A stretch of 38,804 bases of DNA from Candidatus Jorgensenbacteria bacterium (GCA_037444725.1 JBBILW010000003.1:1-38804), one strand, 5' to 3'; counted from the first letter of the stretch, positions 14,409 to 33,007 are shown. Notes: generated from the sequence alone by a model not told the origin. Numbers and translations: made by a program.

Positions 14409-14479
14409 GGGCCTATAGTAAAGTGGCATTACGCCTCCATGGCATGGAGGAGGTCGGGGTTCGATTCCCCGTAGGTCCA
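14409..14479 (+). tRNA. tRNA-Ala(GGC)
   Basis: G3-U70 acceptor GGGCCTA/TAGGTCC; CCTCC-ATGGCAT-GGAGG. Confidence 0.95.
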
Positions 14480-14654
14480 CAATCATTAAACACCGCTCTT
14501 GTGAGCGGTGTTTTGATTTGTCATACTAAGGGGAATCGAACGGGAAGGGGGTCGGGGAAACGGGAGTTTCCCCGTGGCGGAGCACACGAACCGCTGGGTT
14601 CGTGAGAGGCGAGTAATATGCGCGAGCCGACGTTCGCTTCCCCGTAGGTCCACA
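14480..14654 (+). repeat. tRNA-trailing element, copy A (terminator, inverted tRNA-Ala 3' end, 62-nt core, direct tRNA-Ala 3' end)
   Basis: Inverted copy 14518-14541 (19/24); core 14542-14603; direct copy gttcgcttccccgtaggtccaca 14632-14654 (22/23 vs 14459-14481). Confidence 0.9.
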
Positions 14655-14655
14655 C

Positions 14656-15278: not shown

Positions 15279-15282
15279 AAAT

Positions 15283-15317: not shown

Positions 15318-15318
15318 G

Positions 15319-15566: not shown

Positions 15567-15700
15567 CACAGAACAAAAAGACGCCGAAAGGCGCTCTTTT
15601 TTGTTGCGCGCAGATTCCGAAGAATTGTCAGTTTTTTGGAGTTGCCTCGTCATACTTATGTCTCACATAAAACACACAGCGATAGAAGGGAGAAGGCGCC

Positions 15701-17168: not shown

Positions 17169-17286
17169 CTTATATTTATTCAACACCGCTCCGGCGGTGT
17201 TTTTTTGACTTATGATCGTAGGGAGTGCTAGGGTGGCACGGTAAGTGGCTCCTTAACATCACGTACTTCGCACAAGGGGGTTCAGC

Positions 17287-17979: not shown

Positions 17980-18045
17980 ACATGGGGAGCGGGCGAGTAA
18001 ATCGCGCTGCTCCTTTTTATTTGCGCAAAATACGTGCGCGTTCTT

Positions 18046-18354
18046 TTAATTCAGTTGATTCAGTTCTTCGAGGGCGTCCTGCAAGTTATTCAGCGCAGAT
18101 TCCTTTTCTTGTTCATCACCCGCATTCCGGTACTCCTCAATAAGACGCACGCCCTTCTCCGTTCCGCTCAATTCACGGAAAGGACCCGCGAACTGACCAA
18201 TCCAACTCATAGCAAGCTCATTCCTTTGGTTCTGTTTAGCGCCGTGCGTTTTGCCAAATTCTTCAATGAGCGCTTTTTGAATCGCGTTGTGTTCAGCAAG
18301 AGGCAATACACCTTCCTGTTCGGGCTCGCTTGGCTTGAATTGTTCCAAGTTCAT
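18046..18354 (-). CDS. Hypothetical acidic helical protein
   Basis: 102-aa ORF directly downstream of the glycosyltransferase, same strand. Confidence 0.6.
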   Translation of the reverse strand: MNLEQFKPSEPEQEGVLPLAEHNAIQKALIEEFGKTHGAKQNQRNELAMSWIGQFAGPFRELSGTEKGVRLIEEYRNAGDEQEKESALNNLQDALEELNQLN

Positions 18355-18369
18355 AGTATGAGAATATAA

Positions 18370-19461
18370 CTATTTCAAATCCGCAACAAATTGCACGATT
18401 GCCTGCGTGGTATTGCGTGGGAAAAGCGCTCGCATAGCGCGTGAGCGCTCAAGTTTTACTTTTGCGGGTTCATCCCGCAAGGCGAGGATACGCTTCATCG
18501 CGCGCACCGCCGTTTTCTCAACGAATCCAAAACCGCGTTTCGTAAATATATCTACATTCCCTTCTTCCTGAGGTTTCAGATATTTTGTGATGACGACGGG
18601 ACAACCCATCGCGGCCGCTTCCATGACGAATCCGGTGCCCGCCTTGCCAATCGCTACGTCAGCAACGCGGAAGTATTCATCCATGTTATCAATAAAGCCA
18701 AGCACGTGTGCTCGCGGCAGTTCGCGCGCGAGTTTTTCTTTAAGCGCATCATTTTTTCCGCACACGATGATAGGGGTGATGCCGCCGGTCTTTTCAAGAA
18801 GCCATGCGAGGTCCTCGACGAAAGGGTCGGGCGCGGTATGCGCCATGTAGAGCGCGGTATAGGTGTTTGCAGGGATAGAAAGTTTTTTGCGGAGCGCATC
18901 GGCGTCTTTGGATTCGAAGAATGCCGCGCGCAAGGGATACCCCAGCTGAAAAATAGTTTCGGGAGAAGCGCCGAGTTCCTCGAGCGCTGCAACCGTCTCG
19001 GGAAGGGGTGCGATGTGCGCATCGGTGCCCGGTGCATACCAATAGGCATGTAGCGTTTCAAGGTCAGTCACAACGGAGACGAGCTGAAACGTGTGTTTTG
19101 ATTTGAGTTCGGCTATCACGCGATTCGCGGCAGGGAAGGTGGTCACAATCGTATCCGGGCGCATCTGTGAGATGTACGCATCAAGATTTGCGGAGACTTT
19201 TGCGGGCGCTATGGCGACGATGGCATCAAGAACGGTATTCGAGTCGGTAGCGGCAGCGAGTCCGCGATGGAGGAGGGGAACGTGCGTGGTTGCAAAATTG
19301 AAAAGTTCTTTTGTGATGCGTTCGGTGAAGGTGCCGATGATGTCTTTGAAATCAAAAATCTCGGCGCTATGGCCCTGACGCACGAACTCGGCGCGCAACG
19401 CTTCCGCGGGCGTTTTGTGCCCGCTGCCGTATTCGGATGTAACGATAAGAATCTTTTTCAC
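18370..19461 (-). CDS. MGDG synthase/UgtP-like diacylglycerol glycosyltransferase
   Basis: YGSGHKTPAEAL, VVTD...HAYW, VCGKND, GKAG, QEEGN; GTG start at 19461 (the longer ORF overlaps tRNA-Leu). Confidence 0.85.
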   Translation of the reverse strand: MKKILIVTSEYGSGHKTPAEALRAEFVRQGHSAEIFDFKDIIGTFTERITKELFNFATTHVPLLHRGLAAATDSNTVLDAIVAIAPAKVSANLDAYISQMRPDTIVTTFPAANRVIAELKSKHTFQLVSVVTDLETLHAYWYAPGTDAHIAPLPETVAALEELGASPETIFQLGYPLRAAFFESKDADALRKKLSIPANTYTALYMAHTAPDPFVEDLAWLLEKTGGITPIIVCGKNDALKEKLARELPRAHVLGFIDNMDEYFRVADVAIGKAGTGFVMEAAAMGCPVVITKYLKPQEEGNVDIFTKRGFGFVEKTAVRAMKRILALRDEPAKVKLERSRAMRALFPRNTTQAIVQFVADLK

Positions 19462-19463
19462 GG

Positions 19464-19549
19464 TGCCTAGGGCCGGACTCGAACCGGCAAGACCTGTTAC
19501 GGTCAAGGGATTTTAAGTCCCTCGTGTATACCAATTTCACCACCTAGGC
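19464..19549 (-). tRNA. tRNA-Leu(TAA)
   Basis: GCCTAGG/CCTAGGC; AGGGA-CTTAAAA-TCCCT; long variable arm. Confidence 0.95.
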
Positions 19550-19708
19550 TTTTGTGCTTGCACCAATAAAGCACTGTATGATGCTACCCCAAATTAAAAA
19601 ACCCGACAATTACTATAGTGTATTATCGCATATGCATTGACAAAACACAAGAAAAATGTGAAGATATAAACAGTTCTTCATCCCCCTTACCGAATGCGGA
19701 GGTACGAC

Positions 19709-20137
19709 ATGAAGATTGTCGCGAAGTTCATCGAAGAATTCGTCGCTCTCCTCATCTTTGCGTTCTTGCCCTCGTTTCTCATCACCGAGATGTTCGCGAG
19801 GAATTATGAGCACAAGTGGTTGCTCATGTTCGTCATCGCGTGCGTCGCCCTCTCCATCGTCCTCTTCTTCAAGATGTATATGGAATACAAACGGGCCGCA
19901 CGGGCGCTCGTGCTCTCGCACGATCTGAAAAAGCTCGCAATGCATCCCGCGGTGTCCGCACGCACGAAGTCCGCGCTTCTGCATACCATCGCGCACTGCA
20001 CAGAAGCGGAACGCGAGATCGCCGCCGGCAGACCTCTTGCGGAGGTGTATGATTTCAACCGTCTTCGCGAGAAAGTCAAAGAAGGGAGAAAGTGCGCGCT
20101 GCGCGAGATTCGCCTCGCGGAGCGAGAGCGGACGTAA
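19709..20137 (+). CDS. Hypothetical membrane protein (2 TM + helical domain)
   Basis: GGAGG SD before ATG 19709; TTGACA at 19637; terminator at about 20146-20183. Confidence 0.7.
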   Translation: MKIVAKFIEEFVALLIFAFLPSFLITEMFARNYEHKWLLMFVIACVALSIVLFFKMYMEYKRAARALVLSHDLKKLAMHPAVSARTKSALLHTIAHCTEAEREIAAGRPLAEVYDFNRLREKVKEGRKCALREIRLAERERT

Positions 20138-20269
20138 TCCGCTCACCCCCCCTCGGAACCTACGGGTTTCGCAGGGGGTTTTCATTTTCCACGAAACTCA
20201 TTGACAATGTTCCAGGGAAATGAGTTAATAGCCAAGCTCATTTCCACAAAAAATAGAAAGGACCCCCAC

Positions 20270-20806
20270 ATGAAGCGCATTGGATTGGTATTCGCGGCGT
20301 TTGGCGTCGTCACGTTGTATGCGGAACATGAACACATGCCGGTAGTTGCGCGCGTGTTCGGTGTCGCGAACGCGCAAGCGGCGCCGGTTGTGGCGGAGGC
20401 GCCTCCCGACTTTGGAAAGGTGGCATTGTTTTCCGGGGGCGTGTTCATCACGCTTCTTGTTCTCGAGTTGTTCGCCCGTACAATCGCCGCGCGGAAAATC
20501 CGCAAGGAAAACGAAAAGGAATTCCGCAGGTTGTTGAAAGACCTTCCGCAGAGGTTCAAGGATGCGCGCGCGGCACTCGGCCACTCCCACGTGACCGAGA
20601 GCACGAAGAGAATGCTCGATCTGGCCAAGTGGGAGTTCAATGCCGTGAACGCAGAGGCGAAGAATCCGCCTGACGTGGCTCGCTCGCTCTCACTGTTGCG
20701 GCACATCAATTCGGTAATCGACGTGGTGCTCGAAAATGCGCAGCATGAGAAGAAGTTCGCGTTGGCGTCCTTCATCGGAACTCCAGGCTACGTGGACGAG
20801 GGATAG
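20270..20806 (+). CDS. Hypothetical membrane protein related to the C-terminal part of the adjacent TPM protein
   Basis: GAAAGGA SD; TTGACA at 20201; LLKDLPQRFKDARAALGHSHVTESTK aligns with LLASLPAHLKKARAAVNRDDVGDRAK. Confidence 0.7.
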   Translation: MKRIGLVFAAFGVVTLYAEHEHMPVVARVFGVANAQAAPVVAEAPPDFGKVALFSGGVFITLLVLELFARTIAARKIRKENEKEFRRLLKDLPQRFKDARAALGHSHVTESTKRMLDLAKWEFNAVNAEAKNPPDVARSLSLLRHINSVIDVVLENAQHEKKFALASFIGTPGYVDEG

Positions 20807-20966
20807 CCTCGTTCTGTGGCGTGTGTCACATTCAAACCCCCTGAATATCTACGGATGTTGAGGGGGCTTTTTATTACATCAAAATATGATTGACAAAAGC
20901 CAAAAAAAGTGCTTAAATACTAGCAGTTTCTTCACAACCCAAACCAACACAGAAAGGCGGGAAGTC

Positions 20967-22217
20967 ATGAAGAACTTGAACGGCAAGGCGCTGTTGCATT
21001 GGACACTTCTCATCGCCGTGTCGGCCCTCTTCGGGCTCGTGAGCTGTCACGCACACGCGCAGGAGTTCCCGAAGCCGAAGGGCTACATGAACGACTTCGC
21101 CCACATCCTCTCGGAGGATGAGGCGGTGAAGCTCGAGGTCGAGCTCGCGAAGTTCGACGCCCGGATGGGCGTAGAAATCGCGGTCGTCTCCGTGAAGTCG
21201 CTCAACGGTTACTCCGTCGAGGAGTACACGAAGCGGCTCAGCAACGCCTGGGGCGTCGGGAAGAAGAGCGCGAACAACGGCATCATGTTCCTTGTGGCGC
21301 CAAGCGAGCGGAAGATCCGCATCGCCGTCGGGGACGGCCTCACGGCGCAGTTCTCCGACGGTGAGGTAAAGCGCATCATCGAGAACGAAGTCGTTCCTCG
21401 GTTCCGCAAGAACCAGCTGAACGAGGGGCTAGTTGCCGGCGCGCGCAGCATCATGAGTGTGCTGACGGAAGAGCGCGCCTCGTCCGTGCAGGCGCCGAAG
21501 CGCAGCGAGGATAAGGCCCCGGTTTACATCATGGGCGGCATCTTTGCGGCGTTGCTGCTGTCGTTTGGCGGCACGATGATAATCGGTGCCATCTACGATC
21601 GGAGGAAGGAGCGGAAGGAGACCGAAGAGCTGCTCGCGTCGCTTCCGGCGCACCTCAAGAAGGCGCGGGCCGCGGTGAACCGCGACGACGTCGGCGACAG
21701 GGCGAAGGAGCTCTTTTCGAAAGCCTCCGAGCTTTTCGAAGAGGCGACGCAGAAGCCCACTCTGCTCACCAGGTACGGGATTCTCAAGAAGCTGAGGGAC
21801 GCTTCGTCCGCGGCGAACAGAGCGGAGATGGCCGCGGAGAGCGACAGGAAGCAAGCCGCAGTGGCGCGCGAGAAGGGTCCGGAACTTTTTGCAAAGCTTC
21901 CGGAGCAATTTGCGGCCGCGAAGGAGAAGGCGGCGGGTGACGAGCAGAAGTTGCAGCGCATCGCGTCTGACGAGATGAAGTATCACGATCTGCGCGCGAG
22001 CTCCGTCAGCGGACTCGTGCCCGACTGGGTCGTCTGGTACGTCGTTCTCTCGGCCATGAGCTCTCACTGCGAGAGCGTCGTGAATCCGGAGCCGCCGCGT
22101 TCGAGTGGCGATGATGGGAGACGCTCCTCCTACGACAGCGACTCCACGAGCTCAAGCTCGTTCCCCAGCTTCAGCGGCGGAAGCATGGGCGATGGCGGCG
22201 CTTCCGGCGGCTGGTAG
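20967..22217 (+). CDS. TPM-domain (YgcG-like) membrane protein with extended helical region
   Basis: GYMNDFAHIL, WGVGKKSANNGIMFLVAPSERKIRIAVGDGL, C-terminal FSGGSMGDGGASGGW. Confidence 0.9.
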   Translation: MKNLNGKALLHWTLLIAVSALFGLVSCHAHAQEFPKPKGYMNDFAHILSEDEAVKLEVELAKFDARMGVEIAVVSVKSLNGYSVEEYTKRLSNAWGVGKKSANNGIMFLVAPSERKIRIAVGDGLTAQFSDGEVKRIIENEVVPRFRKNQLNEGLVAGARSIMSVLTEERASSVQAPKRSEDKAPVYIMGGIFAALLLSFGGTMIIGAIYDRRKERKETEELLASLPAHLKKARAAVNRDDVGDRAKELFSKASELFEEATQKPTLLTRYGILKKLRDASSAANRAEMAAESDRKQAAVAREKGPELFAKLPEQFAAAKEKAAGDEQKLQRIASDEMKYHDLRASSVSGLVPDWVVWYVVLSAMSSHCESVVNPEPPRSSGDDGRRSSYDSDSTSSSSFPSFSGGSMGDGGASGGW

Positions 22218-22228
22218 CAGACATCACA

Positions 22229-22262
22229 CCCCTTGGAATCTACGGATTCCAAGGGGTTTTTC
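22229..22262 (+). terminator. Terminator with C(UACG)G tetraloop
   Basis: accccttggaatc-tacg-gattccaaggggt followed by T tract; related hairpins at about 20146 and 20835. Confidence 0.85.
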
Positions 22263-22331
22263 TTTTGACAAAATTGGCGAAAAAGATGATAAGTATACAC
22301 GCACCTTGAAACCCTAAGAACGGAGGCAGTC

Positions 22332-22538
22332 ATGAAAAAGTCGCTGCGAAGTAGAAGAGCGGGGAGTAATGTCCGCAGAGTGGCAAGAACGGTCGCGTCG
22401 CCCATCTTCATGCAGATGCAAACGGCAGTGAACCGTCCGAGTCGACCCGCAAGGCTCGATCCGTCGATGCGCGACGTGAGTCGGCGCCGTCTTCCATTCG
22501 CTCCGCGCAAGAAGCGGTTCGAGAAGCCGAAGAAGTAA
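22332..22538 (+). CDS. Small very basic hypothetical protein (68 aa)
   Basis: TTGACA at 22265, GGAGG SD, own terminator at about 22545-22580. Confidence 0.6.
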   Translation: MKKSLRSRRAGSNVRRVARTVASPIFMQMQTAVNRPSRPARLDPSMRDVSRRRLPFAPRKKRFEKPKK

Positions 22539-22586
22539 ATACGCAACCCCCGAATGTCTATAAGACATTCGGGGGTTTTTCTTATG

Positions 22587-22658
22587 AGGCCGCGGTGAGA
22601 ATTGAACTCACGCATAAGGGTTTTGCAGACCCTTGCCTTACCACTTGGCTACGCGGCC
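22587..22658 (-). tRNA. tRNA-Cys(GCA)
   Basis: GGCCGCG/CGCGGCC, U73 discriminator; AGGGT-CTGCAAA-ACCCT. Confidence 0.95.
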
Positions 22659-22972
22659 GGCTCTTCTTTCACTTCTTCCGATTTTCCTGGCTCTACTATT
22701 TCGAACTTGAGAAACGGCACGGGCTTGATGTTTAACTTGCGCACCAACTGGTGGTGGAGGTCCGCCGCGTGGCGGGTCAACATGCCATATACCCCCGGTC
22801 CTTTCTCAAAGGGAATAATACCAAGACGCACATTCGCATGCAATAATTTCTCGTCGACATCAACGCCGAGGATGGTTACGAGCGCTCCTTCGAAATTGAA
22901 GTCACGCGCAAACATTTTGCCGAGCTCTATCTCGATAAGGGCTCCCGCTTTGAGGTTGCGATAGGGTTTCAT
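22649..22972 (-). CDS. rbfA: Ribosome-binding factor A
   Basis: Directly downstream of infB; LVTILGVDV...LLHANV...LNIKPVPFLKF pattern. Confidence 0.8.
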   Translation of the reverse strand: MKPYRNLKAGALIEIELGKMFARDFNFEGALVTILGVDVDEKLLHANVRLGIIPFEKGPGVYGMLTRHAADLHHQLVRKLNIKPVPFLKFEIVEPGKSEEVKEEPAA

Positions 22973-22979
22973 TCCTTAG

Positions 22980-24422
22980 TTAGATAATCGGAAACAAAAG
23001 TTTGTTGCCGACGCGTATCGGGTCTTCTGATTCCACGCGCATGCCGACCTCAACGCCCGTGGGCGCCTCGGCAACATCTTTGCGCATCGACTGAAGGTTG
23101 ATGATGTGACCCTTGCCGATGAGTTTCATGTCCTGCCAAATCTCGAACGCTTCCTTGTTTTTGATAGGGCCGAGCGCAACCTTGCCTCCCACGACGCGCT
23201 CCTTGCCTTTTGCAGCGCCGAAGACGCCCAAGATTTCGATGGTGCGGTACTCCTTCGTGGAGAATTTCTCCGCGTACTCCTTCATCTGCTTCTCAAGCTC
23301 ATAAATGATGGGGGAGAGGAGCATATTAATCTTTCTCGAAATCGCCATATTTTCCGCAGCGCGGTCCGTTTTCACGCGGAAGCCCACCACGATGGCGTTC
23401 ATGCTCTCCGCATCTTTCACATCGCCCTCCGTAATAGGGCCGATACTCGCCTTAACGACTGCGAGCGGAAGTTTCTGCGCAAGGCGCTGCGTTACTTCCA
23501 CAAGTACTTCGAGTGAACCCGCCTCATCCGCTTTTAAGAATACCGGAAGCTGTTTCTTCTTTTCGAACGTGCTCGCGGCACGCGGTGCAGCGGCTGCTTG
23601 CTTCTCCATTGCCTCAAGTGATTCGCGAAGCATTGCCTCCTCCTTATGCGCGCAGAATACTTCTCCTATCTGAGGAGCTTTTTCAAAACCGATGATAGTC
23701 GCGGGAGCGCTGGGGCTCAATTCTTTTGCCGCCTTACCCGCAAAGTCTTCCAAGATGCGCACTTTTCCACTCGCGCTGTGCGTTGCAATCATTGCGCCCT
23801 GTTTCAACACGCCTTGTTTAATGATTACGCTCGCCAGCGTACCGCGTTTCGGGTCCATGCGAACGGAAATAACGACGCCCGAGGCAATGTTGTTGCCCAC
23901 GCAATGAATGTCTTCAAGTTCGGAAGCGAGTAATACCAAATCAAGAAGTTCGTTCACGCCCTCGCCCGTTTTTGCGGAAATCGCGTGCCACGACACATCG
24001 CCGCCTCGTCCTTCGAGGAAGACGTTCAACTGCATGAGGTCGTTTGCCACACGGTCTACGTCGGCTCCGGGCTTATCGATTTTATTTACCGCGACGATAA
24101 ACGGAACTTTTTCTTCCTGGATGTATTTCAGGGCATCCTTCGTCTGCGGTTTTACACTGTCGTCAGCCGCAACCACCAAAATGGCGAGGTCGGCGACGTT
24201 TGCGCCGCGCTTGCGCATCTGCGAAAACGCCTCGTGTCCAGGCGTATCGATAAACGTAATCTTTTTTCCGTTGTGGGCAATCTCATAGGCACCCATAGAC
24301 TGGGTAATGCCTCCCGCCTCCTTGCTCGCCACGTTCGATTTACGGATATAATCAAGAAGCGTGGTCTTTCCGTGGTCCACATGACCCATAATAACGACGA
24401 TTGGAGGGCGCGATTGCTTCAT
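22980..24422 (-). CDS. infB: Translation initiation factor IF-2 (short, lacking the N-terminal domain)
   Basis: RPPIVVIMGHVDHGKTTLLD, DTPGHEAF, NKID; start MKQSRPP. Confidence 0.96.
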   Translation of the reverse strand: MKQSRPPIVVIMGHVDHGKTTLLDYIRKSNVASKEAGGITQSMGAYEIAHNGKKITFIDTPGHEAFSQMRKRGANVADLAILVVAADDSVKPQTKDALKYIQEEKVPFIVAVNKIDKPGADVDRVANDLMQLNVFLEGRGGDVSWHAISAKTGEGVNELLDLVLLASELEDIHCVGNNIASGVVISVRMDPKRGTLASVIIKQGVLKQGAMIATHSASGKVRILEDFAGKAAKELSPSAPATIIGFEKAPQIGEVFCAHKEEAMLRESLEAMEKQAAAAPRAASTFEKKKQLPVFLKADEAGSLEVLVEVTQRLAQKLPLAVVKASIGPITEGDVKDAESMNAIVVGFRVKTDRAAENMAISRKINMLLSPIIYELEKQMKEYAEKFSTKEYRTIEILGVFGAAKGKERVVGGKVALGPIKNKEAFEIWQDMKLIGKGHIINLQSMRKDVAEAPTGVEVGMRVESEDPIRVGNKLLFPII

Positions 24423-24510
24423 TTGTATTGTAAAACTAGCAGAGAAGTGGTATAAATACAAGGTTTTTCACGCATTTATGAGGGTTAGTTGCAGTCGTTT
24501 ATCAGTGATT

Positions 24511-24597
24511 GGAGGCGTGGCTGAGCGGTCGAAAGCGGCTTCCTGCTAAGAAGTCGTGGGGGGAACCCCACCGAAGGTTCGAATCCTTCCGCCTCCG
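24511..24597 (+). tRNA. tRNA-Ser(GCT)
   Basis: GGAGGCG/CGCCTCC; GCTTC-CTGCTAA-GAAGT; long variable arm. Confidence 0.95.
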
Positions 24598-24867
24598 CAT
24601 AAAAAACAAAAACACCGAAAGGTGTTTTTTGTTCGCGGAGCTGGAAGGATTCGAACAGGAGTGGGGTCGGGAGAACACTTGGTCTCCCGTATAGGAAATA
24701 GCTCCGCGGGAGCGTTTAGAAACCGTGGGCTTCTAAAGAGCGAGACCGTTGCGGTTGAGCGACGTTCGATTACCTTCCGCCTCCGCAAAAATAAACGGGA
24801 AACCTTTCTGGTGTCCCGTTTTATATTCGTTGCAGTTGAGTGATGCTCGATTCATTTCCGCCTCCGC
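24598..24867 (+). repeat. tRNA-trailing element, copy C (diverged core; two direct 3'-end copies)
   Basis: Inverted copy gcggagctggaaggattcgaac 24635-24656 (20/22); direct copies at 24764-24787 and about 24845-24867. Confidence 0.85.
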
Positions 24868-24926
24868 GAATGAAGAAAGTTGTCCCCTCTTGCAATGCGG
24901 CTTCATGACATTATTATGATATCTAT

Positions 24927-25223
24927 ATGGCTACACTTAACCAAATAACGTCAGTGGTGAGCAAAATGTCAGAGAGGCTTGACGGCGACCGGAGCGTGCA
25001 AAGCAAGCTGTTAAACTTAAATTTTGACGTTGCTAAGCTGTGGCTCGCTACCCAAAAAGAAGATAAACAAGAATTGCAGAAACGGGTAGCCAACCTTTTT
25101 GTCGGCAGTTTTATTATGGCTGATGTATTGGGGTATAAAGACATTGAAGCCGTCATTTCTCAAAGATTAGCGGAACTTAAACAACACCACGTTCTTGGAA
25201 ACGAAGAGAACGAGTTAGTATAA
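24927..25223 (+). CDS. Hypothetical protein, possibly a degenerate MazG-like fold
   Basis: Helix pattern KLL...DVAKL...DKQELQKRVANL...MADVLGYKDIE; lacks the catalytic EE/D. Confidence 0.55.
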   Translation: MATLNQITSVVSKMSERLDGDRSVQSKLLNLNFDVAKLWLATQKEDKQELQKRVANLFVGSFIMADVLGYKDIEAVISQRLAELKQHHVLGNEENELV

Positions 25224-25307
25224 GTGCGGCAAGTATAAAATGGGACGCCTTTGAGGCGCCTCATTTTATATTCATGGTGCGAGGGCTTCGTGTGTTAATA
25301 TTCGAAT

Positions 25308-26156
25308 ATGAAAAAGATTCACATTGGTATGACTGCCGCGGGAATTATTTTTGCGATTGCAGTGGGGGTATATGCGTGGGGGAGACTTGAAAAGCCACAA
25401 CCTATCGGCGGACAAAAAGATGCACATGGATGCCTTGTCGCGGCTGGTTACTCCTGGTGCGATGCGCGAAAGGAATGCGAGCGGCCGTGGGAACGATATT
25501 GCACCACCGCAACGCCGAAGGCGGCCACGTTTATCTGCGCTGACGAAAAATCAATTTCCGCTATTTTTTACCCCAGTGACGACAAGTACGTTGACTTAGT
25601 GTTGAGCGACGGAAGAGCATTGTCTGTGCCTCATGCCATTTCGGCTTCAGGTGCGCGCTATGCAAAAGCAGATGAATCATTTGTCTTTTGGAATAAGGGC
25701 GACACTGCTTTCATAACAGAAAAAGGAACAACCACATTTTCTGGCTGCGCGATAACGACGCAAAACAAGGTACAGTTCACGAACTCGAAAGGGGGATACG
25801 GCTTTGATTATCCGCCTGTATGGAAAGTAGCGATTAATCAGTACAACAATAGCAATTCTTTATTTGGCCCGAACGCTGATAGCGCTTCAGGTCTCGGCGG
25901 TGTTGAGGTATTTCCCAATCAGAAATCAATTGATTCATTCCTCGCGGGCGTGGCAGCACAATACGATAACAAAATTACCATCGCGGTTGATGGAGTGCCC
26001 GGAGTCCGCGTTCATTATAAAGGCACACCGGTGAGCGGTACGGCTTTTGTAGTGCTCAAAGACGGCAACATTTTTAATATCTATATTAACAGCGAAAAAG
26101 GTGAAAACGTCAGCTTGCTCGACCAGCTCGTTTCTACTTTCAAGTTTGTCCGTTAG
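25308..26156 (+). CDS. Exported protein with MliC/PliC lysozyme-inhibitor-like domain and C-terminal PsbP-like domain
   Basis: N-terminal TM; GGQKDAHGCLVAAGYSWC; SASGARY...FWNKGDTA MliC signature; GFDYPPVW. Confidence 0.8.
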   Translation: MKKIHIGMTAAGIIFAIAVGVYAWGRLEKPQPIGGQKDAHGCLVAAGYSWCDARKECERPWERYCTTATPKAATFICADEKSISAIFYPSDDKYVDLVLSDGRALSVPHAISASGARYAKADESFVFWNKGDTAFITEKGTTTFSGCAITTQNKVQFTNSKGGYGFDYPPVWKVAINQYNNSNSLFGPNADSASGLGGVEVFPNQKSIDSFLAGVAAQYDNKITIAVDGVPGVRVHYKGTPVSGTAFVVLKDGNIFNIYINSEKGENVSLLDQLVSTFKFVR

Positions 26157-26442
26157 GCGCACGACCTCCAACAGCTCGGCAATGTCGGCCTTAGCACCCG
26201 CGCGCTGTTGAATGTGGAGTAGCTCTTATATATCGGCACGCCCTACGAAATTTCTTCTCTGTCAGCTCTCAATGAAACAGATTGATGAAAGCATTGATAT
26301 TTAAGTTTGCGGGCTTTTAGGGTGGGGCGCTCCGTCATTTGTTAAATAGCGATAACGCTGAATGTTAAATAGCAAAATAGTATGTTATAATAAAAACATT
26401 GATTTATGCATGCTTGTAGTGTATTATTGTTAAATAACGAAT

Positions 26443-27636
26443 ATGGAAGAAGTAAATAAAAAAGCCTTCAAATACGTCCCGCTTAAGCTTTATGATCCAA
26501 AGTGGGGAAGTCGGCTAGCAAATACTATTATTGAGTTAGAAAAACTGCGAGTAAAAAAACTTGGGGGGCCCGTTCCACCATATATATTTTTCCAATTAAA
26601 GGACATTTTTCAGATGTTTGAGAGTCTTGGTTCTGCGCGTGTTGAGGGTAACAACACCACATTGGCTGAGTTTGTTGAGAAGATCATCGAAGATCCATCA
26701 AAAACAGCGAAAGATGAGGGATTGAGAGAGATATACAATATCGAACGCGCGATTGCGTTCATTGATAAAAATGTTGGGAAAACGACTCAGTTCAACCGCG
26801 GTTTAATTTCCGAAATTCACAAAATTATAGTGGACGGCCTAGTGCCACCACCGACGGGTGAAGGATCTCGTCACCCAGGGGAATTGCGCCAAATTAATGT
26901 TTCTATCCAACGATCAAGTCACATTCCTCCGGATAAGACGAAGGTTCAGGAGTATTTTGATGAATTGCTTAAGTTTGTTAATCAATCCATTGATGAGCAA
27001 TATCATTTGTTGGCCATAGCATTATCTCACCATCGAATGGCGTGGATCCACCCCTTTGATAACGGCAACGGGCGTATGGTGCGTATGTTCACGTACGCGC
27101 TTCTTATAAAGCAGGGATTTCAAGTGAAAAGTGGTCGCATTTTGAATCCGACCGCGATATTTTGCATGGACAGAGATAAATATTATGACATGCTTTCACT
27201 TGCCGACTCAGGGGAAGAGGATAAGGTTTTAGAGTGGTGTTTATACGTGTTAGATGGTTTACGTCTCGAAATAGAAAAGATCGATAAATTGCTCGATCTC
27301 GGGTATATTACCAATACCATTTTACTACCAATGCTTTCTTACGCTCTGGAGCAGAAGCACATCACACCACGTGAGCACAAAATACTTTCAACTCTTGTGA
27401 GGGCTGAGGATATGACCATAAAATCCGCAGATTTAGTGGAAATTATTGGCAACGAATCATCGGTGCAGCGCTCAAGAATACTAAAAAAATTAAAAGATAA
27501 AAAAATGCTCATTCCTCTTGAAGAAAATGGTCGCGTGTACACAATAGGATTCGCGAATAACTATTTATTACGTGGTATCGCATATATTCTAGAAAAAAAT
27601 AGCTTTGTGCCAGAATCACTAAATAAGAAATACTAA
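26443..27636 (+). CDS. Fic family protein with probable C-terminal wHTH
   Basis: HPFDNGNGRMVR Fic motif; SARVEGN inhibitory-type motif; AT-rich. Confidence 0.92.
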   Translation: MEEVNKKAFKYVPLKLYDPKWGSRLANTIIELEKLRVKKLGGPVPPYIFFQLKDIFQMFESLGSARVEGNNTTLAEFVEKIIEDPSKTAKDEGLREIYNIERAIAFIDKNVGKTTQFNRGLISEIHKIIVDGLVPPPTGEGSRHPGELRQINVSIQRSSHIPPDKTKVQEYFDELLKFVNQSIDEQYHLLAIALSHHRMAWIHPFDNGNGRMVRMFTYALLIKQGFQVKSGRILNPTAIFCMDRDKYYDMLSLADSGEEDKVLEWCLYVLDGLRLEIEKIDKLLDLGYITNTILLPMLSYALEQKHITPREHKILSTLVRAEDMTIKSADLVEIIGNESSVQRSRILKKLKDKKMLIPLEENGRVYTIGFANNYLLRGIAYILEKNSFVPESLNKKY

Positions 27637-27717
27637 CGATTACTCAAAGCGCCCCTCCTGGCGTTTTGTGTTAGTAGGGGTTGGAATTATCGTAAGAAGT
27701 TCGACATAATTTCGGTA

Positions 27718-28635
27718 ATGGAACTCCCCGAAAATCTGAAAGAACTTTATCGGCATTGGGAGGGGCATGCGGGCGCAAGCTCGGGCGTGGGAACGGATAG
27801 CGTTACCAGCGACAAAGAGCTATTTGAGCGCATCACGTGGTTCATCAATGAGCGTCTAGAGATTTGGAAAAAGAAAACGGCGGGAGAGAAACCGCCATAC
27901 ACGCAGGATGCGATTCTCTCGCACTATCGTTTCTGCAACATCTTCAGAGAGTTTGATAGGCAGACGATTGAGCTTCATACACTTCTTAATCCGCTGAGGG
28001 ATAATTTTCCTCTGTGGTTGTTAAACATGTTCTACTGCCGGATGATTGCGAGGCCAGAAACAATTCACGCGGTGGGCTTACTCTCGTTCAACGCAAAAGA
28101 AAACGAGGAGCTGTATAAACGACTCATAGCTTTGCCGCGTCCGCGCTACGGCACACCGTATGTGTTTCCGATAAGCGTGATTCAAAAAAGTAAAACGCCG
28201 ACGAGAGAATTATTTATAACAGACTTCTTACCACGCGTGATGGAGTCGGTAGCGAAGGAGATTGAGACGTGGGAGCGTGTGTCCGTATACGAAGGAGTGA
28301 AGAAGGTTATTCCTATTTTTGACTACAACTTGAACTTCCTCTGGACCGAGGCGCTTATCGATGTAGCATATCAGTTTCCACAGTACACAAATCTTTTTGA
28401 GCGGTTTCCTGTCGGCCCTGGGGCATTGCCGACATTGAGACGCATTAATGAAGAGAAAGAGCCGTCGGAGCTTGTGGTGGAGCTCGCGAAGATAAATATA
28501 GATATGTACATCACATTCAACGGGAAGCCGTTACGGCTCTCGGCGGAAAATTGGGAGGGAGTGGCGTGCGAATTCAGGAAATACACGAATTTGAGTGCGG
28601 GGAGGGGGAGGAAGAGAATATTCTCTCATTATTAG
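27718..28635 (+). CDS. aGPT-Pplase1 / 5-hmdU DNA kinase helical-domain-like protein (DNA base hypermodification family)
   Basis: ERLEIW...PPYTQDAILSHYRFCNIFREFDR and C-terminal EGVACEFRKY motifs. Confidence 0.75.
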   Translation: MELPENLKELYRHWEGHAGASSGVGTDSVTSDKELFERITWFINERLEIWKKKTAGEKPPYTQDAILSHYRFCNIFREFDRQTIELHTLLNPLRDNFPLWLLNMFYCRMIARPETIHAVGLLSFNAKENEELYKRLIALPRPRYGTPYVFPISVIQKSKTPTRELFITDFLPRVMESVAKEIETWERVSVYEGVKKVIPIFDYNLNFLWTEALIDVAYQFPQYTNLFERFPVGPGALPTLRRINEEKEPSELVVELAKINIDMYITFNGKPLRLSAENWEGVACEFRKYTNLSAGRGRKRIFSHY

Positions 28636-28706
28636 ACAACTGCGCGGGTCTGCGCTAGTCTGCAATCAGTAACTCAAACAACCCGAAACAGGAAAGGGAG
28701 GGGCAT

Positions 28707-29228
28707 ATGGGACTCTTGAAGCGCATCGCAGACTTGTTCCGAGGGCGGAAGAGCAACAATCCCGCATCAGTTGAAGCGCCCGATACGAGGGTGGAGATTG
28801 AGGAGGGTGAAGACCCCATTCCGAGGCTCTGCTTCCCGAACGGACGTGGCTGTCCGCATGGGCCCACAAAGGGCGTGGTTGCCTTGGTCATCCACGGCAA
28901 GCCATTCGAGATCGACTCACCTCCGATGTGCAAGGAGTGCAGTGAGAAGTATTTGAACGCGAATGCGACAAAGTGCGCCGTCTGCAAGATGCCGATTTTC
29001 CCCGGTGACGCCGTGGGCGACCCGAGCGGGTCAATCCTCACCATCGGGAAGAAGTTCGTTCATCTTACGCACGGGTGTTGCGAGGACGGCGGGTACTTCT
29101 GTGGGTACTGGGGAGAGGGCAGGCTCGTGAGGCTTCACGAGGTCGACCCGAAGCAGTTCCCCGAGGGCACGACAACGGTAATGGCGCACGCCTTCACGAG
29201 TGGTGAGACAGTTATCTCGCGTCCGTAG
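28707..29228 (+). CDS. Cys-rich (zinc-binding) hypothetical protein
   Basis: Strong SD; CxxC pairs, CC...C. Confidence 0.65.
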   Translation: MGLLKRIADLFRGRKSNNPASVEAPDTRVEIEEGEDPIPRLCFPNGRGCPHGPTKGVVALVIHGKPFEIDSPPMCKECSEKYLNANATKCAVCKMPIFPGDAVGDPSGSILTIGKKFVHLTHGCCEDGGYFCGYWGEGRLVRLHEVDPKQFPEGTTTVMAHAFTSGETVISRP

Positions 29229-29241
29229 TCTCGGAGAGCGT

Positions 29242-29421
29242 ATGGAGAAAGTCACACAGGAGGAGCTTGCGCTCATCAACGCGCGGGCGAATGCCGGTTG
29301 CTGCCCCAAGTGCAAGAGCCTCAGTACGGGGTGGGACCCTCGCGAGGAGTGGAAGCGTGAGTGCTTCCGCTGCGGACGAAGGTGGGAGAACGAGCACCTT
29401 CGCGCGCTTCTCAAGAAGTGA
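29242..29421 (+). CDS. Small zinc-ribbon protein
   Basis: GGAGAG SD; CPKC...CFRC; terminator at about 29432-29460. Confidence 0.6.
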   Translation: MEKVTQEELALINARANAGCCPKCKSLSTGWDPREEWKRECFRCGRRWENEHLRALLKK

Positions 29422-29538
29422 GCAACATAGAGGGTCGCACAACACGTGCGACCCTTTTTTATTTGACGAGCGCAGTAAATTGGAGTGTACTGACAGAGTT
29501 CTTTCACAACGAATCGAACGAAAGGAGGTGAGTGGCAG

Positions 29539-30324
29539 ATGGGAGAGCTCATATTGCTAAGCGATGTATGGCTCACGAGACGTGTGAGAGACAAGACGTA
29601 CGCCGATGAAGAGGGAGGAATCTCGACCGACGTTCGCGGATACTTTTCGGGTCACACGCCGCGTCCGCTCTGCGAGCAGACCGATGTGCTCCGCAAATAC
29701 TTTCCGCGCGCGGGTTATGCGAACTTCTCGCTTGTCGAAAACGTGCCGTTGCCGGAGGGCGCGGAGGGCTGGTTCGCCATTCCTCGCTGGGAGCGCATTG
29801 CGCCGACATACTGTGGAGCGGTCGAGAAGGTATTTCGCATGCTTCTGAGGGAACGCGCCGGCAATTTCAGGAATAGCGGCGAGAGGGCGCTTACGTCCCT
29901 CAATCTTCGCGAGTCGGAAAAAACGCGGCATGCCTTTGTTGATATTGAGCATGCGCAGGCCGGATGCGGGATTCTCATTGTGCCCGCACAGTTCGGCATG
30001 CGGCATCGATACCGTTCGGTGCGCCGTGCGCGGGCAATAATGCCGGAGCGCGAGTTCGGGCTTGGTGCATTCGCGGTAGGGGTGATGCTTCTCACGCACC
30101 CCGCGCGTCTTGCGGATTACCGCGACCTCGGCATCGAATGCGCGGGCGATGAGGTGGGAGTGAATCCTCCCGGTACGCCGACGCTTGGCGAGTTCAACGA
30201 CGCGGACCCAGGTCTGCCGTGCGTGCCTCATTTCCGGTTCCTCTATAACGCGCTCGAGTTCGGTGTCGGCAATACGGACATCGTAAGTCCCCACGCCGGT
30301 TCCGCGTCTGCGTTCAGACTGTAA
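29539..30324 (+). CDS. Hypothetical protein
   Basis: AAGGAGGTGA SD; 261 aa; AEGWFAIPRW, AQFGMRHR, GSASAF motifs; terminator follows. Confidence 0.75.
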   Translation: MGELILLSDVWLTRRVRDKTYADEEGGISTDVRGYFSGHTPRPLCEQTDVLRKYFPRAGYANFSLVENVPLPEGAEGWFAIPRWERIAPTYCGAVEKVFRMLLRERAGNFRNSGERALTSLNLRESEKTRHAFVDIEHAQAGCGILIVPAQFGMRHRYRSVRRARAIMPEREFGLGAFAVGVMLLTHPARLADYRDLGIECAGDEVGVNPPGTPTLGEFNDADPGLPCVPHFRFLYNALEFGVGNTDIVSPHAGSASAFRL

Positions 30325-30370
30325 TCCCCGCAGTATCTATAGGATTCGGCGGGTTTTTTTATTTCTCTTT

Positions 30371-30560
30371 GTAGTCCCGGGGAGAATCTCCTTCGCCTCT
30401 CGCCCCGCTCGTCAGCGGGGCTCGGACTAGGCACCGCCTCACGTGCCTCGCTGCTGCTTGGCACATGCTCCGGCGTTCGATTCACCCGCGCGAGCCAAGT
30501 AGTTGGCTCGCTTGGGGCTATAAAAATATCCCTCCTTGCGGGTGGGATATTTTTCTTTAG
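30371..30560 (-). repeat. tRNA-trailing element, copy D (different core)
   Basis: Terminator 30522-30554; inverted tRNA-Glu 3' end 30475-30520 split by a hairpin; direct copy 30371-30388 (16/18). Confidence 0.75.
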
Positions 30561-30632
30561 TAGCCCCAGGGAGAATCGAACCCCCGTTTATGCCGTGAAA
30601 GGGCATTGTCCTAACCACTAGACGATAGGGCC
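30561..30632 (-). tRNA. tRNA-Glu(TTC)
   Basis: GGCCCTA/TGGGGCT; ATGCC-CTTTCAC-GGCAT. Confidence 0.95.
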
Positions 30633-30740
30633 AACCGGTACGGCGCTGCGCGCGCCATTGCTATCGGACATAGCATAAAACATCCCTGACTTTTTTTCCA
30701 GCCACAGCGCACGTAGTGTATAATAGTACTAACGTTCGTT

Positions 30741-31223
30741 ATGGAGATAAAGAAAAAAAGGGAATCGGTTACATGGCACGCAGCCGAACATCATCACGCT
30801 GAAAAAAATACGGGATGGTACGCAATCATCGGCGGTGCGGCATTATTGCTGTTCGTTATTGCATTATTTTCAAGAAATTTCTTTTTCGCCGTACTCATTT
30901 TGCTTGCAACGGCTCTTATTATGATATTCGGCAGCCTGGAGCCGAGAGTATACGAATTCCACGTAGGCGAGCATGGCGTGACTGTCGACAAGAAGCGGTA
31001 CCTCTACAACGAATTCGAGAGTTTTTCGCTCCGCAGGCATGGACACAATCATGAGCCGCGCGAAATTGTGCTTCACATGAAGAAAAAAGTGAATCCCTTT
31101 CTTCATCTGCCTATGGAATCAAGGGGCATCTCCGACGTCCACGCGATTTTGCACTCGAAACTCAAAGAAACCGAGTTCGAAGAATCGTTTGCGGACATCG
31201 TTGCTGACATTCTCGGGTTTTGA
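30741..31223 (+). CDS. Hypothetical membrane protein (2 TM + beta domain)
   Basis: W-A-EH...WY, two TM helices, C-terminal LGF. Confidence 0.75.
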   Translation: MEIKKKRESVTWHAAEHHHAEKNTGWYAIIGGAALLLFVIALFSRNFFFAVLILLATALIMIFGSLEPRVYEFHVGEHGVTVDKKRYLYNEFESFSLRRHGHNHEPREIVLHMKKKVNPFLHLPMESRGISDVHAILHSKLKETEFEESFADIVADILGF

Positions 31224-31267
31224 TTTTTTGGTGAAGACGTGTCATAATCCTGCTCGTACGTAAATAT

Positions 31268-31339
31268 GCCCTTGTCGTTCAACGGATAGGACGCAAGATT
31301 GCGGATCTTGTAATCGAGGTTCGATTCCTCGCGAGGGCA
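31268..31339 (+). tRNA. tRNA-Arg(GCG)
   Basis: GCCCTTG/CGAGGGC; CAAGA-TTGCGGA-TCTTG. Confidence 0.93.
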
Positions 31340-31555
31340 CAAAAAAGAAAACACCCATGACGGGTGTTTTCTTGTATTTGTGCTCGCGAGGAATCGAACG
31401 GGAAGGGGGTCGGGGAAACGGTAGTTTCCCCGTGGCGGAGCATACGAACCGCTGGGTTCGTAAAAGCGAGCGACGAGCGAGCTTTGTTCGCTTCCTCGCG
31501 ACGACCGAGCAAGAGCGAGGAAGTACTGAGCGCAGCAGCGCGAACGTAGGGCACA
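31340..31555 (+). repeat. tRNA-trailing element, copy B
   Basis: Inverted copy 31377-31399; core 31400-31461 is 60/62 identical to 14542-14603; direct copy 31486-31501 plus 31548-31555. Confidence 0.9.
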
Positions 31556-31623
31556 TCAATTGACTAAATACGTATTTTACGTTATTCTGTCAAGCAGAAC
31601 ATTTAACTCTAAGCGGAGGACAT

Positions 31624-32253
31624 GTGCAAAAAAAGTGTGTGTGGTGCAACCGGCGAAGCTTCGCGAACCGTATCATTCATGAAACAAAGGAGTGGTACGT
31701 GGTCGCAGCTCTTGGCCAGATTACGGATGGCGGGCACGTGCTCGTGATTCCGAAGCGACACCTGCTCTGCATGGGTGAGATACGTGAGACGTCTTCGTTA
31801 AATCATTTCGTCACACGCGTTCGCCATGCGGTGACGTGGGGATACGGCAAAAATAATGGAAGGGACCAGCCGTTCTTCTCGACCATGATGTTCGAGGACG
31901 CGAGTCAGCGGGGAAGTACGAATCATGCTTGTTTCCACATTGTGCCGACAAGCTTGAAAATCGAAGACGCGTTTTTCGATCGTTACCCCTGCATGACGCC
32001 AAAGAAGATGCGGCCGCGCGAGACTCTGCAGAGCATTTTCCAGGGCCGTCCCTATCCCTACCTCTACTGGGCGTATGACTACGGGCAGAGGATGATTCTC
32101 TGGGACCCGCCGCCCACCGTGCAGAGTCTTCGGAAGGTCGTGGCAACGCTCCATGGATGCCCCGAACGCGGCGATTGGCGTACGGTCAATCCCGCCGACG
32201 ACGAAGTCTTGTGGCGGAGAACCACGGCACGCCTCAAGGCGTATTTCGTATAG
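31624..32253 (+). CDS. HIT-family protein, diverged paralog
   Basis: CVWC, GHVLVIPKRH, degenerate HACFH; GGAGGA SD. Confidence 0.75.
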   Translation: MQKKCVWCNRRSFANRIIHETKEWYVVAALGQITDGGHVLVIPKRHLLCMGEIRETSSLNHFVTRVRHAVTWGYGKNNGRDQPFFSTMMFEDASQRGSTNHACFHIVPTSLKIEDAFFDRYPCMTPKKMRPRETLQSIFQGRPYPYLYWAYDYGQRMILWDPPPTVQSLRKVVATLHGCPERGDWRTVNPADDEVLWRRTTARLKAYFV

Positions 32254-32383
32254 TACGCAGCCCCTTCGGGGGCTTTTTATTTTCGTACGTTTTTAAAAAA
32301 CTGCGCTATCGTTCTTGTTTGACTTCGGGAGTGTTTCCGCATAATCTGCCAATAGAACTTTCACCTGGAAACTCGGAGGCTGT

Positions 32384-33007
32384 ATGGAAAACGGTTGCGC
32401 GTTTTGCGACAAGAAGAATTTCGAGGAGCGCATCATCAAAGAGACCGAGCATTGGTACGTGGTTGCCTCACTCGGCCAGATTACGGATGGCGGGCACGTG
32501 CTCGTGGTCCCGAAGCGACACCTGCTCTGCATGGGCGAGGTGCGGGAGCTGAAGTCCTTGAGGTGCATTTCTGCGGCCGTGCATCGTGCGCTCATCAGGG
32601 TGTACGCGAACGGACTCATGTCGCGGTACGATTCGGTGATGGCATTCGAACACGGCATCGTAGGACAGACCGTGTTTCACGCGCATCTCCATTTCCTGCC
32701 GGCGAGGCTCTACATCACCGACAAAATTCGGAGGGATTTCCCCGCAGCGGAAATCGAGAGCATTCCGGTGGGAGGCTCTCTGCAGGAGCTCTACCTCGCG
32801 CGCCGCAAGCCGTACCTTTATTGGATGATGCCCAACGGCCAGGAGATGGTGTGCTGGAATCCTCCCGCATCGCCGCGTTACTTCCGCGAACTCTTCGCGA
32901 AACGTCTCGGCCACCTTGAGCGCGTTGATTGGAAGCAGGTGGACCCTGCACACGACCGCATGCTCTGGAGTACCACCGTTGCGGCATTGAAGCCGGAACT
33001 GCAGTAG
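32384..33007 (+). CDS. HIT-family nucleotide hydrolase
   Basis: CAFC, GHVLVVPKRH, FEHG, GQTVFHAHLHF. Confidence 0.88.
   Translation: MENGCAFCDKKNFEERIIKETEHWYVVASLGQITDGGHVLVVPKRHLLCMGEVRELKSLRCISAAVHRALIRVYANGLMSRYDSVMAFEHGIVGQTVFHAHLHFLPARLYITDKIRRDFPAAEIESIPVGGSLQELYLARRKPYLYWMMPNGQEMVCWNPPASPRYFRELFAKRLGHLERVDWKQVDPAHDRMLWSTTVAALKPELQ

Follow-up and report, generated by a model that had tools for sequence, protein, structure and literature searches.

The window analysed here is contig C3, a stretch of 38,804 nucleotides, of a Jorgensenbacteria genome (G000; 651 kb, 37 contigs, 44 tRNA genes, 96.7% complete). The features found behind tRNA-Arg(GCG) and behind three other tRNA genes of this window are collected in Table 1. 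As evident from the table, the tRNA-Arg gene was followed by a spacer, an inverted copy of its own 3' end, a conserved core and a direct copy of the same end; this unit is termed copy B, and the corresponding unit behind tRNA-Ala(GGC) is termed copy A. The units were 167 nt (copy B) and 173 nt (copy A) long, and neither contained a gene. Read from the sequence, G53 of tRNA-Arg(GCG) is 31319 and its T-loop, ttcgatt, occupies 31320-31326. Apart from two missing C, the inverted copy was the reverse complement of the stretch that starts at G53 and ends three bases beyond the tRNA gene; its T-loop complement was wild-type, as the initial annotation had stated and as can be read directly. The direct copy started with GTTCGCTTCC, and the substitution that the annotation had reported as shared with copy A (A58-to-C) was indeed found at both loci.

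Table 1. Features of copy B and of the other units in the window.
Feature	Position	Strand	Evidence
tRNA-Arg(GCG), target gene	31268..31340	+	ARAGORN; Rfam tRNA, 59 bits
Proximal (functional) site copy, from the T-loop to about 3 nt past the tRNA 3' end	31319..31343	+	Repeated at 31486-31501/31549-31555
Palindromic spacer; centre is a terminator-like hairpin (AAAACACCC-ATGA-CGGGTGTTTT)	31344..31376	+	31319-31399 folds as one continuous hairpin
Inverted copy of tRNA-Arg 3' end, TTTGTGCTCGCGAGGAATCGAAC	31377..31399	+	Sequence comparison
Conserved core, copy B	31400..31485	+	Shuffle test, covariation; without Rfam family
Core part J1, GGGAAGGGGGT		+	
Core part P2 (loop GGTA)	31411-31432	+	
Core part J2, GTGGCGGAGCA		+	
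Core part P3 (loop GCTG)	31443-31462	+	
Core part P4, variable	~31466-31482	+	
Core junction, TTT		+	
Direct (displaced) copy, first part, GTTCGCTTCCTCGCGA; A58-to-C at 31491	31486..31501	+	Sequence
Nested 47-nt copy of second small repeat family (GACCGAGC..GAGGAAGTACTGAGCGCAGCAGCGCGAACGT), splitting the direct copy	31502..31548	+	Copies elsewhere
Direct copy, second part, GGGCACA, end of displaced tRNA 3' end	31549..31555	+	Sequence
Copy A at tRNA-Ala(GGC)	14459..14654	+	Sequence
Copy A, T-loop to end (followed by spacer hairpin)	14459-14481	+	
Copy A, inverted arm GGGGAATCGAAC	14530-14541	+	
Copy A, core	14542-14631	+	
Copy A, direct copy GTTCGCTTCCCCGTAGGTCCACA; A58-to-C at 14637	14632-14654	+	
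Third copy in window, behind tRNA-Ser(GCU)	24599..24786	+	Second copy of tRNA end
tRNA-Ser(GCU) copy, inverted arm	24635-24656	+	
tRNA-Ser(GCU) copy, diverged core with one extra hairpin	24657-24763	+	
tRNA-Ser(GCU) copy, direct copy GTTCGATTACC..	24764-24786	+	
Element behind tRNA-Glu(UUC); unrelated core (family 3), same architecture	30371..30559	-	Second copy of tRNA end
tRNA-Glu(UUC) element, inverted arm, interrupted by small hairpin	30520-30475	-	
tRNA-Glu(UUC) element, direct copy	30388-30371	-	

The interruption of the direct copy had been described as about 46 nt long, with gcgaggaag...gcgaac complementary to the direct copy. Both words were present (31515-31523 and 31540-31545), in an insert of 47 nt; however, they belong to the consensus of an independent small repeat (~46 nt, GACCGAGC..GAGGAAGTACTGAGCGCAGCAGCGCGAAYGT) whose copies elsewhere had no link to tRNA-Arg. 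In G000, this repeat was found at C22:4158-4205, behind tRNA-Glu(CUC) and an inverted T-arm copy, at C9:20381-20463, where it was tandem and intergenic, and at C9:22268-22318. Copies were also present in four genomes of the same genus (G002, G003, G005 and G006), and two units of the repeat precede CGAGCTTTGTTCGCTTCC at the orthologous tRNA-Arg locus of G006. Copy B is a worn, decayed member of its insertion family, with this nested insert and a 2-nt deletion in the inverted arm.

A Pfam scan of the genes around copy B revealed two HIT-like paralogues and an FAD-binding protein, and nothing related to recombination. The paralogues adjoin each other at 31624-32253 and 32384-33007, between tRNA-Arg(GCG) and tRNA-Gly(GCC), and 32420-32548 shares 82% DNA identity with a segment of the first gene. 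The gap between these tRNA genes was only about 380-470 nt in three genomes of the same genus, so that about 3 kb was seemingly gained at this hotspot in G000.

Copies and fold of the core

The first 22 nt of the core occurred twice in the window, while the number expected from 100 shuffles was 0.00. A BLAST search of G000 with a 63-nt core gave 12 matches of at least 40 nt, and a fuzzy scan gave 15 matches at 14 tRNA genes, all just downstream of the tRNA and on its strand. Elements with diverged or unrelated cores, which were found by searching for second copies of the last 17 nt of each tRNA, were located behind tRNA-Ser(GCU), tRNA-Ser(GGA), one tRNA-His, tRNA-Glu(UUC), tRNA-Trp and tRNA-Thr(UGU). 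The core was therefore present behind at least 14 of the 44 tRNA genes, and some such element behind about 20. The family 3 core of tRNA-Glu(UUC) (GCCGGAGCATG..GGTGCC..GAGAGGCGA) was also found behind tRNA-Trp (C5) and tRNA-Thr(UGU) (C17) of G000 and behind tRNA-Arg(GCG) of G003. At tRNA-Ser(GCU), a further terminator was followed by a third partial copy of the tRNA 3' end (24843-24868), which is probably the remnant of another insertion. The ATG of the gene downstream of copy A is at 14656. Contigs from three DNA runs of one study were compared with positions 13800-32400; they broke at repeats and showed no joint that skipped an element, and since contigs are blind to rare forms, this mapping is uninformative on mobility. 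One contig from a second sample contained 31428-31578 unchanged.

Covariation supported a folded structure of the core. In an alignment of 42 sequences, one of the nine pairs of P2 showed 15 compensatory changes, and four pairs of P3 showed 18-22 each. Additionally, the stretch from tRNA G53 to the inverted arm formed one continuous hairpin in 46 of 54 copies (median 79% paired, z -8.5), so that the apparent terminator is the centre of a long palindrome. Folding of copy B, which the initial annotation had proposed for 31319-31555, gave two alternative pairings of the inverted arm: a rod followed by P2, P3 and P4 over 31319-31501 (-66.4 kcal/mol, z -11.5), and a fold over 31377-31555 (-44.6 kcal/mol, z -4.2) in which the inverted copy was paired, apart from a T-C mismatch, to the split direct copy. 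Among Rfam families, only tRNAs reached the gathering score in the window; the best non-tRNA match at 31330-31600 was ylbH, with 24 bits against a gathering score of 50, and no family passed the E-value threshold there.

These properties raise the question of whether the units are structured non-coding RNAs (tRNA trailers or small RNAs) that are not mobile, with arms matching the tRNA for alternate pairing with, for example, the tRNA 3' half and the direct copy in processing, quality control or regulation. The covariation is consistent with this explanation, as is the tRNA-sense (+) strand, on which G-U pairs were clearly more numerous than A-C mismatches, and so are the P2 loops, which by eye were mostly of the GNRA type, and the two alternative pairings of the inverted arm. 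In particular, the direct copy of tRNA-Thr(GGU) tracked T-stem differences of the tRNA between genomes, and two copies in G000 followed their tRNA with no intervening terminator. Most copies, however, stood behind a terminator-like hairpin, and the core was without an Rfam family. The evidence from protein genes, sister genomes and an empty site, described below, also argues against a stationary RNA gene, an explanation that we regard as improbable.

Distribution across genomes and target genes

The core was matched in 31 of 61 related genomes, including all seven others of the genus, and its exact 26-base pattern was found in at least 117 places in contigs that represented one genome per species. 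Nearly all of the pattern-bearing contigs listed were from Patescibacteria (Paceibacterota/Parcubacteria groups and MAGs labelled Saccharibacteria), and a few carried other labels. The 80 loci that were fetched contained 81 pattern matches, which stood after a tRNA gene (45), elsewhere (31) or too close to a contig end for assignment (5). Another set of fetched loci gave, together with G000, a sample of 84 core hits; the T-loop and junction counts below refer to 57 tRNA-linked copies.

In 65 of the 84 hits, a tRNA gene on the same strand ended at most 450 nt upstream. The other 19 included five behind tmRNA genes, as identified by ARAGORN, one at the 5' end of a tRNA-Leu gene on the opposite strand (L024), and several at the 5' ends of protein genes, namely those for an RNase H-like protein (L007), an aminoacyl-tRNA-synthetase-like protein (L009), fusA (L046) and rplK (L059). 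In a wider sample, three genomes had a copy at the stop codon of an S21-like gene and two had one at the start of a lepA-like gene; at one locus (L155), an identical repeat of 41 nt ran up to a start codon. In all, the targets of a single core family comprised at least 30 different tRNAs, tmRNA and a number of protein genes. The core lay on the strand opposite to the gene in the copies at protein-gene 5' ends, so that no single strand rule for replication or transcription is evident; as the folded strand is antisense there, this orientation is also at odds with the RNA explanation.

The order of the parts was the same in every copy: gene body, site S with the gene end, short spacer, inverted S, core, altered S* with a second gene end, and flank. 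The arms differed at every locus, and the repeat was 18 to about 75 nt long. It mostly stopped where the gene ended or only a few bases away, whether this gene end was a tRNA 3' end, a start codon or a stop codon, and was longer in some copies.

We also observed related modules in other contexts. In other Patescibacteria (L143, L163, L175, L149; L146, L177, L185, L194, L219, L220, L183, L195), the P2 module (GGGAARGGGGTCGGGRAAAC..GTTTYCCCGTGG) was joined on its left to other conserved hairpin modules, which were not copied from a neighbouring gene. The core seems to be one component in a broader range of composite repeats. A search of IMG/VR with the 26-base pattern gave 0 matches, and the single match to a looser pattern was rejected as a chance P2-like hairpin with no other feature of the core. 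Separately, an insert of about 185-200 nt split tRNA-Thr(GGU) downstream of its anticodon in G009 (L132), G012 (L131) and G022 (L138), and also in G008, G013 and G002 (L019). This insert contained conserved blocks such as CGAACGACTGACAAGGG and AGATACAGTCTA and received an intron call from ARAGORN, i(36,185); it looks like a small intron of the self-splicing type, and the L132 insert matched no Rfam family at threshold.

Empty sites, displaced gene ends and the altered T-loop

A true empty site was found at tRNA-Thr(GGU). In G007, this gene was joined directly to AGTAATTCTTTACA, which was followed by the L33 gene, while in G000 the same flank followed the distal copy, with 134 nt inserted and a direct repeat of 18 nt that ran from T59 to two bases past the tRNA. 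The G006 locus had kept the spacer and part of the inverted arm and had lost the core and distal copy by a deletion between short AATT/TAATT repeats. Behind tRNA-Thr(CGU) and tRNA-Thr(UGU), a native terminator or gene start followed the distal copy.

Protein genes revealed which of the two gene ends is native. The working fusA of G028 started with MARNYPIEKV, and the displaced fragment, which adjoined rpsG, read MPRQYPIKKV; in 13 other loci, fusA started with MPR in eight and MAR in two. Likewise, the working rplK of G028 started with MSKPVKTVIK and the displaced fragment with MAKPIKTTLK, and among 13 other loci ten started with MAK and 0 with MSK. As the displaced ends are typical of their families and the working ends are atypical, the working end was imported with the element and the displaced end is native. 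The empty site and the protein genes show that insertion imports a replacement gene end. By analogy, the part 3' of the T-loop in 31319..31343 is read as element-borne at the tRNA-Arg(GCG) locus, where copy B would have supplied the present tRNA end. The clean empty site and the displaced native N-termini are signs of insertion that would be unexpected for an RNA gene.

Two further sites gave a more local picture. At tRNA-Ala(UGC), where G006 lacks an element, its terminator was homologous to the proximal terminator of G000 and G003, and at tRNA-Thr(UGU) the first 13 nt of the proximal spacer resembled the native downstream gene start; in both cases the carried segment looks locally derived. 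In G013, a displaced N-terminal fusA fragment (MSREYPIEKVRDIGIIAHID; L270) adjoined rpsG and the working start lay 163 nt further on. No match to the core was found in G013, and this site seems to have been used by an element of another family.

We compared the T-loop region of the 57 tRNA-linked copies, an alignment that the initial annotation had proposed on a genome-wide scale. From position 61 to the 3' end, the direct copy was identical to the tRNA in 38 copies and differed by one mismatch in 7 and by two to four in 12. Positions 53-60, in contrast, were altered in 54 copies and unchanged in only three. The inverted arm (median length 14 nt) was the exact wild-type complement of 53-60 in 40 of the 57 and had one mismatch in 12, and it always ended exactly at G53, adjoining the core. 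The T-loop alteration is therefore systematic and one-sided. Uninterrupted identity with the tRNA started at position 57 (8 copies), 58 (3), 59 (15), 60 (16), 61 (12) or 53 (3), so that tRNA-type sequence takes over from element-type sequence within the 3' half of the T-loop or immediately behind it; the crossover that had been suggested there is thus borne out by a consistent junction at 57-61 in 54 of 57 copies.

The suggestion that GTTCGCTTCC is constant element sequence was not upheld, as base 57 followed the tRNA and A58-to-C was present in only 17 of the 57 copies (direct-copy base 58: A 24, C 17, T 14, G 2). The changes depended on the tRNA: T-loops of the type TTCGATT mostly had A58-to-C, AAT loops had one extra base, and others had TC-to-GA at 55-56. 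In one subfamily, GTGA replaced GTTC, which would form tandem G-A pairs with the inverted GAAC. Two other ideas were rejected. A diversity-generating retroelement with adenine-specific changes did not fit, as the changes were not limited to A and no reverse transcriptase was found, and the R-boxes of attC sites did not fit, as AAC/GTT was absent from the protein-gene copies.

It had also been proposed that copy B reflects recent spread or gene conversion between loci, so that the A-to-C change common to copies A and B would stem from recent copying of one locus to the other or from conversion of one by the other. The two copies are indeed alike at 60 of the first 62 core bases, and both have GTTCGCTTCC. 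Among the 17 copies with GTTCGATT in their tRNA, however, 10 from many genomes showed the same change by eye, and the P4 hairpins of A and B differ. The cores nearest to copy B, by our own count with four differences in 86 positions, were those at tRNA-Leu(GAG) and tRNA-Arg(UCG) of G005, another species. Moreover, the orthologous locus of G006 keeps the junction of copy B (CGAGCTTTGTTCGCTTCC) as a remnant, and copy B itself is decayed. A recent common origin of A and B is largely refuted by these observations and must be considered very unlikely.

Within the genus, the tRNA-Arg(GCG) locus contained the remnant in G006, an unrelated core in G003 and a third core type in G007, G004 and G001. The locus is an old hotspot with core turnover and not a recent copy of locus A. 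Such unrelated cores at the same site in sister genomes are also difficult to reconcile with an RNA gene. At tRNA-Leu(GAG), G000 and G005 shared the spacer, arm and altered T-loop, and their cores were from different sublineages. A tree of 59 cores was poorly resolved and clustered neither by genome nor by tRNA; the number of label changes was 38 for genome (shuffled mean 42.8, minimum 38) and 50 for tRNA (51.0). Over a longer time scale, cores seem to have been exchanged among loci.

The insertions could have arisen with no site-specific recombinase, by DNA uptake and homologous recombination with the conserved gene body and displaced end as homology arms; the palindrome and inverted arm would then stem from fold-back at the hairpins, or from template switching there, while DNA is replicated or repaired. 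The identity blocks (14-24 nt at tRNAs, 29 nt at fusA, 41 nt at L155) are about the size of minimal substrates, and the variable repeat length and the tandem or truncated units, which were seen at tRNA-Ala(UGC) of G000, at L053 and at tRNA-Arg of G003, are as expected of such a process. The loss of the G006 tRNA-Thr(GGU) element between short repeats, the choice of the most conserved genes as targets and the failure to find a dedicated enzyme in G000 point in the same direction. This explanation leaves three things unaccounted for: the conservation of the core in sequence and structure across families, the exact end of the inverted arm at G53 beside the core, and the T-loop change in 54 of 57 direct copies. 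We consider it unlikely.

Possible mechanisms and relation to known mobile elements

With moderate confidence, we interpret copy B as a member of a family of 165-250-bp non-coding insertions in Patescibacteria that lie inside the last 18-75 bp of conserved genes, each being a miniature integrative element with a replacement gene end. Such an element would follow the logic of tRNA-integrating islands without any gene of its own, and its spacer would supply a terminator or a ribosome-binding site. In single-stranded form, the inverted copy may pair with the carried gene end into a long rod capped by the core, and this pairing would present the attachment site as a hairpin. The first 5-8 bases of the site, in the T-loop, would be mismatched on the exchanged strand, and the other strand would be perfectly complementary to the target. 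If strands are exchanged at the T-loop or immediately 3' of it (57-61), this would keep the wild-type T-loop in the working tRNA and leave the altered T-loop and the host's old 3' end on the far side.

By analogy with CTX phage and IMEX, we infer a single-stranded intermediate and catalysis by the only tyrosine recombinase of the host. A search of the 96.7%-complete G000 genome for members of the RVT_1, Y1_Tnp, Resolvase, IS110, TnpB-type and Nop families gave no match. A single gene for a tyrosine recombinase was identified, a Xer-like gene at C1:30331-31377 with a Phage_integrase domain (PF00589, 154 bits) and SAM_1. This gene adjoins tRNA-Leu(UAG), as it does in G006, where no element sits there, and the adjacency is therefore synteny and not linkage. 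Against a miniature integrative element, each copy must carry a matching gene end and inverted arm, and there is no obvious route by which it would switch targets. Furthermore, cleavage by tyrosine recombinases usually takes place at the 5' edge of the overlap region, to which an exchange 3' of the T-loop is a poor fit. The locally derived segments at tRNA-Ala(UGC) and tRNA-Thr(UGU), the variable repeat length and the missing strand rule count against it as well.

A protein-less, self-addressed insertion system may also be considered, in which the folded core and the target-complementary arm would direct a host activity, either the lone Xer protein or a repair pathway, to almost any conserved gene end and bring a spare gene end along. 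The arms would then act as programmable guides, and the mismatched T-loop would drive strand exchange forward. We regard this as a tentative and rather doubtful possibility. Like guide-programmed elements (the bridge RNA of IS110, EBS/IBS of group II introns and, as far as the account of it goes (PMC12045711), TIGR-Tas), the units have two segments that match both strands of the target. Unlike in those systems, a search of G000 for IS110, TnpB-type, Nop and reverse-transcriptase genes was negative, and a guide role of the arms is conjectural.

The nearest parallels to a miniature integrative element are islands and single-stranded phage elements. As described for Islander (PMC4383910), islands and prophages in tRNA and tmRNA genes use a tyrosine integrase, are bounded by attL and attR, and leave a restored gene and a displaced fragment. 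As far as that description extends, the present elements are similar in that the target is split, element sequence restores the gene and the displaced fragment lies at the far end, and also in that the junction is in or beside the T-loop and tRNA and tmRNA genes are the main targets. They differ in their size (165-250 bp), in having no gene and no integrase, and in their extra inverted site copy and conserved folded core. Additionally, islands of one lineage use one target, whereas here one core was found at more than 30 tRNAs, at tmRNA and at protein-gene starts and stops. The restored gene with a displaced fragment, the hallmark of islands in that account (PMC4383910), would also suit an origin as decayed attL/attR scars, left at these tRNA genes by former, ordinary islands or prophages that carried an integrase. 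We found no copies of tRNA 3' ends kilobases from their own tRNA in G000, and a 100-nt core serves more than 30 targets. The units are complete at 165-190 bp, the genome has one integrase-family gene, and IMG/VR contained no true match to the core; an origin as island scars is thus extremely improbable.

CTX phage and IMEX integrate through the host XerCD recombinases by means of a folded single-stranded attP(+) hairpin, as outlined in the sources consulted (PMC3442271, PMC3089051). As in those outlines, the present elements have no recombinase of their own, and a host Xer-type protein is present in G000, its presence alone being established. With two inverted copies of the site some 100 nt apart, a hairpin resembling a duplex target with an unpaired centre could be formed, and the integrated form reads as inverted copy, spacer and hybrid direct copy. 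In silico, a rod was predicted for 46 of 54 copies, and the T-loop was mismatched in 54 of 57. Relative to what these sources describe, the targets are many gene ends and not dif, the elements are 40 times smaller, and they carry a replacement gene end. The expected polarity of cleavage is not an obvious fit either, and the element is known from sequence alone.

Two other classes share some of these features. Integron attC sites are folded single-stranded recombination sites with R''/R' boxes (RYYYAAC / GTTRRRY) that are used by IntI and occur in cassette arrays. Like them, the units form an imperfect hairpin with conserved defects and a covarying structure, and the tRNA-linked copies read ..AAC [core] GTT... 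In contrast to attC, AAC/GTT was absent at the protein-gene junctions, the core sequence was conserved, and no IntI, cassette ORF or array was present. MITEs and REP/REPIN sequences have constant terminal inverted repeats, a short fixed target duplication and a cognate RAYT/Y1 transposase. They resemble the present elements in being small, non-coding, hairpin-forming, present in many copies per genome and often located behind genes. The arms of the present elements, however, were copied from the neighbouring gene, the flanking repeat of 18-75 nt ended at the gene end, and no RAYT/Y1 transposase match was found in G000. A full-text literature search outside subscription journals and supplements revealed no published description of such elements.

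Taken together, we consider it somewhat probable that Patescibacteria harbour a small, non-coding, strongly folded DNA insertion that enters the ends of many essential genes and brings its own spare gene end. Some Saccharibacteria can be cultured and transformed, which makes the family testable. If this interpretation is true, a gene-less element has entered nearly half of the tRNA genes in a 650-kb genome, as well as many essential genes of Patescibacteria. The element would escape harm to essential genes by importing a replacement end, with one folded core that fits dozens of targets, and no known class of mobile DNA would unite these properties. Many breaks in the assemblies of these genomes, and their odd 'pseudo-tRNA' fragments, would be explained by it. 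Should insertion be directed by the arms, the element would also constitute a very small programmable insertion module. More generally, a very large and little-understood radiation of bacteria would have a new route for replacing gene ends and for horizontal exchange.
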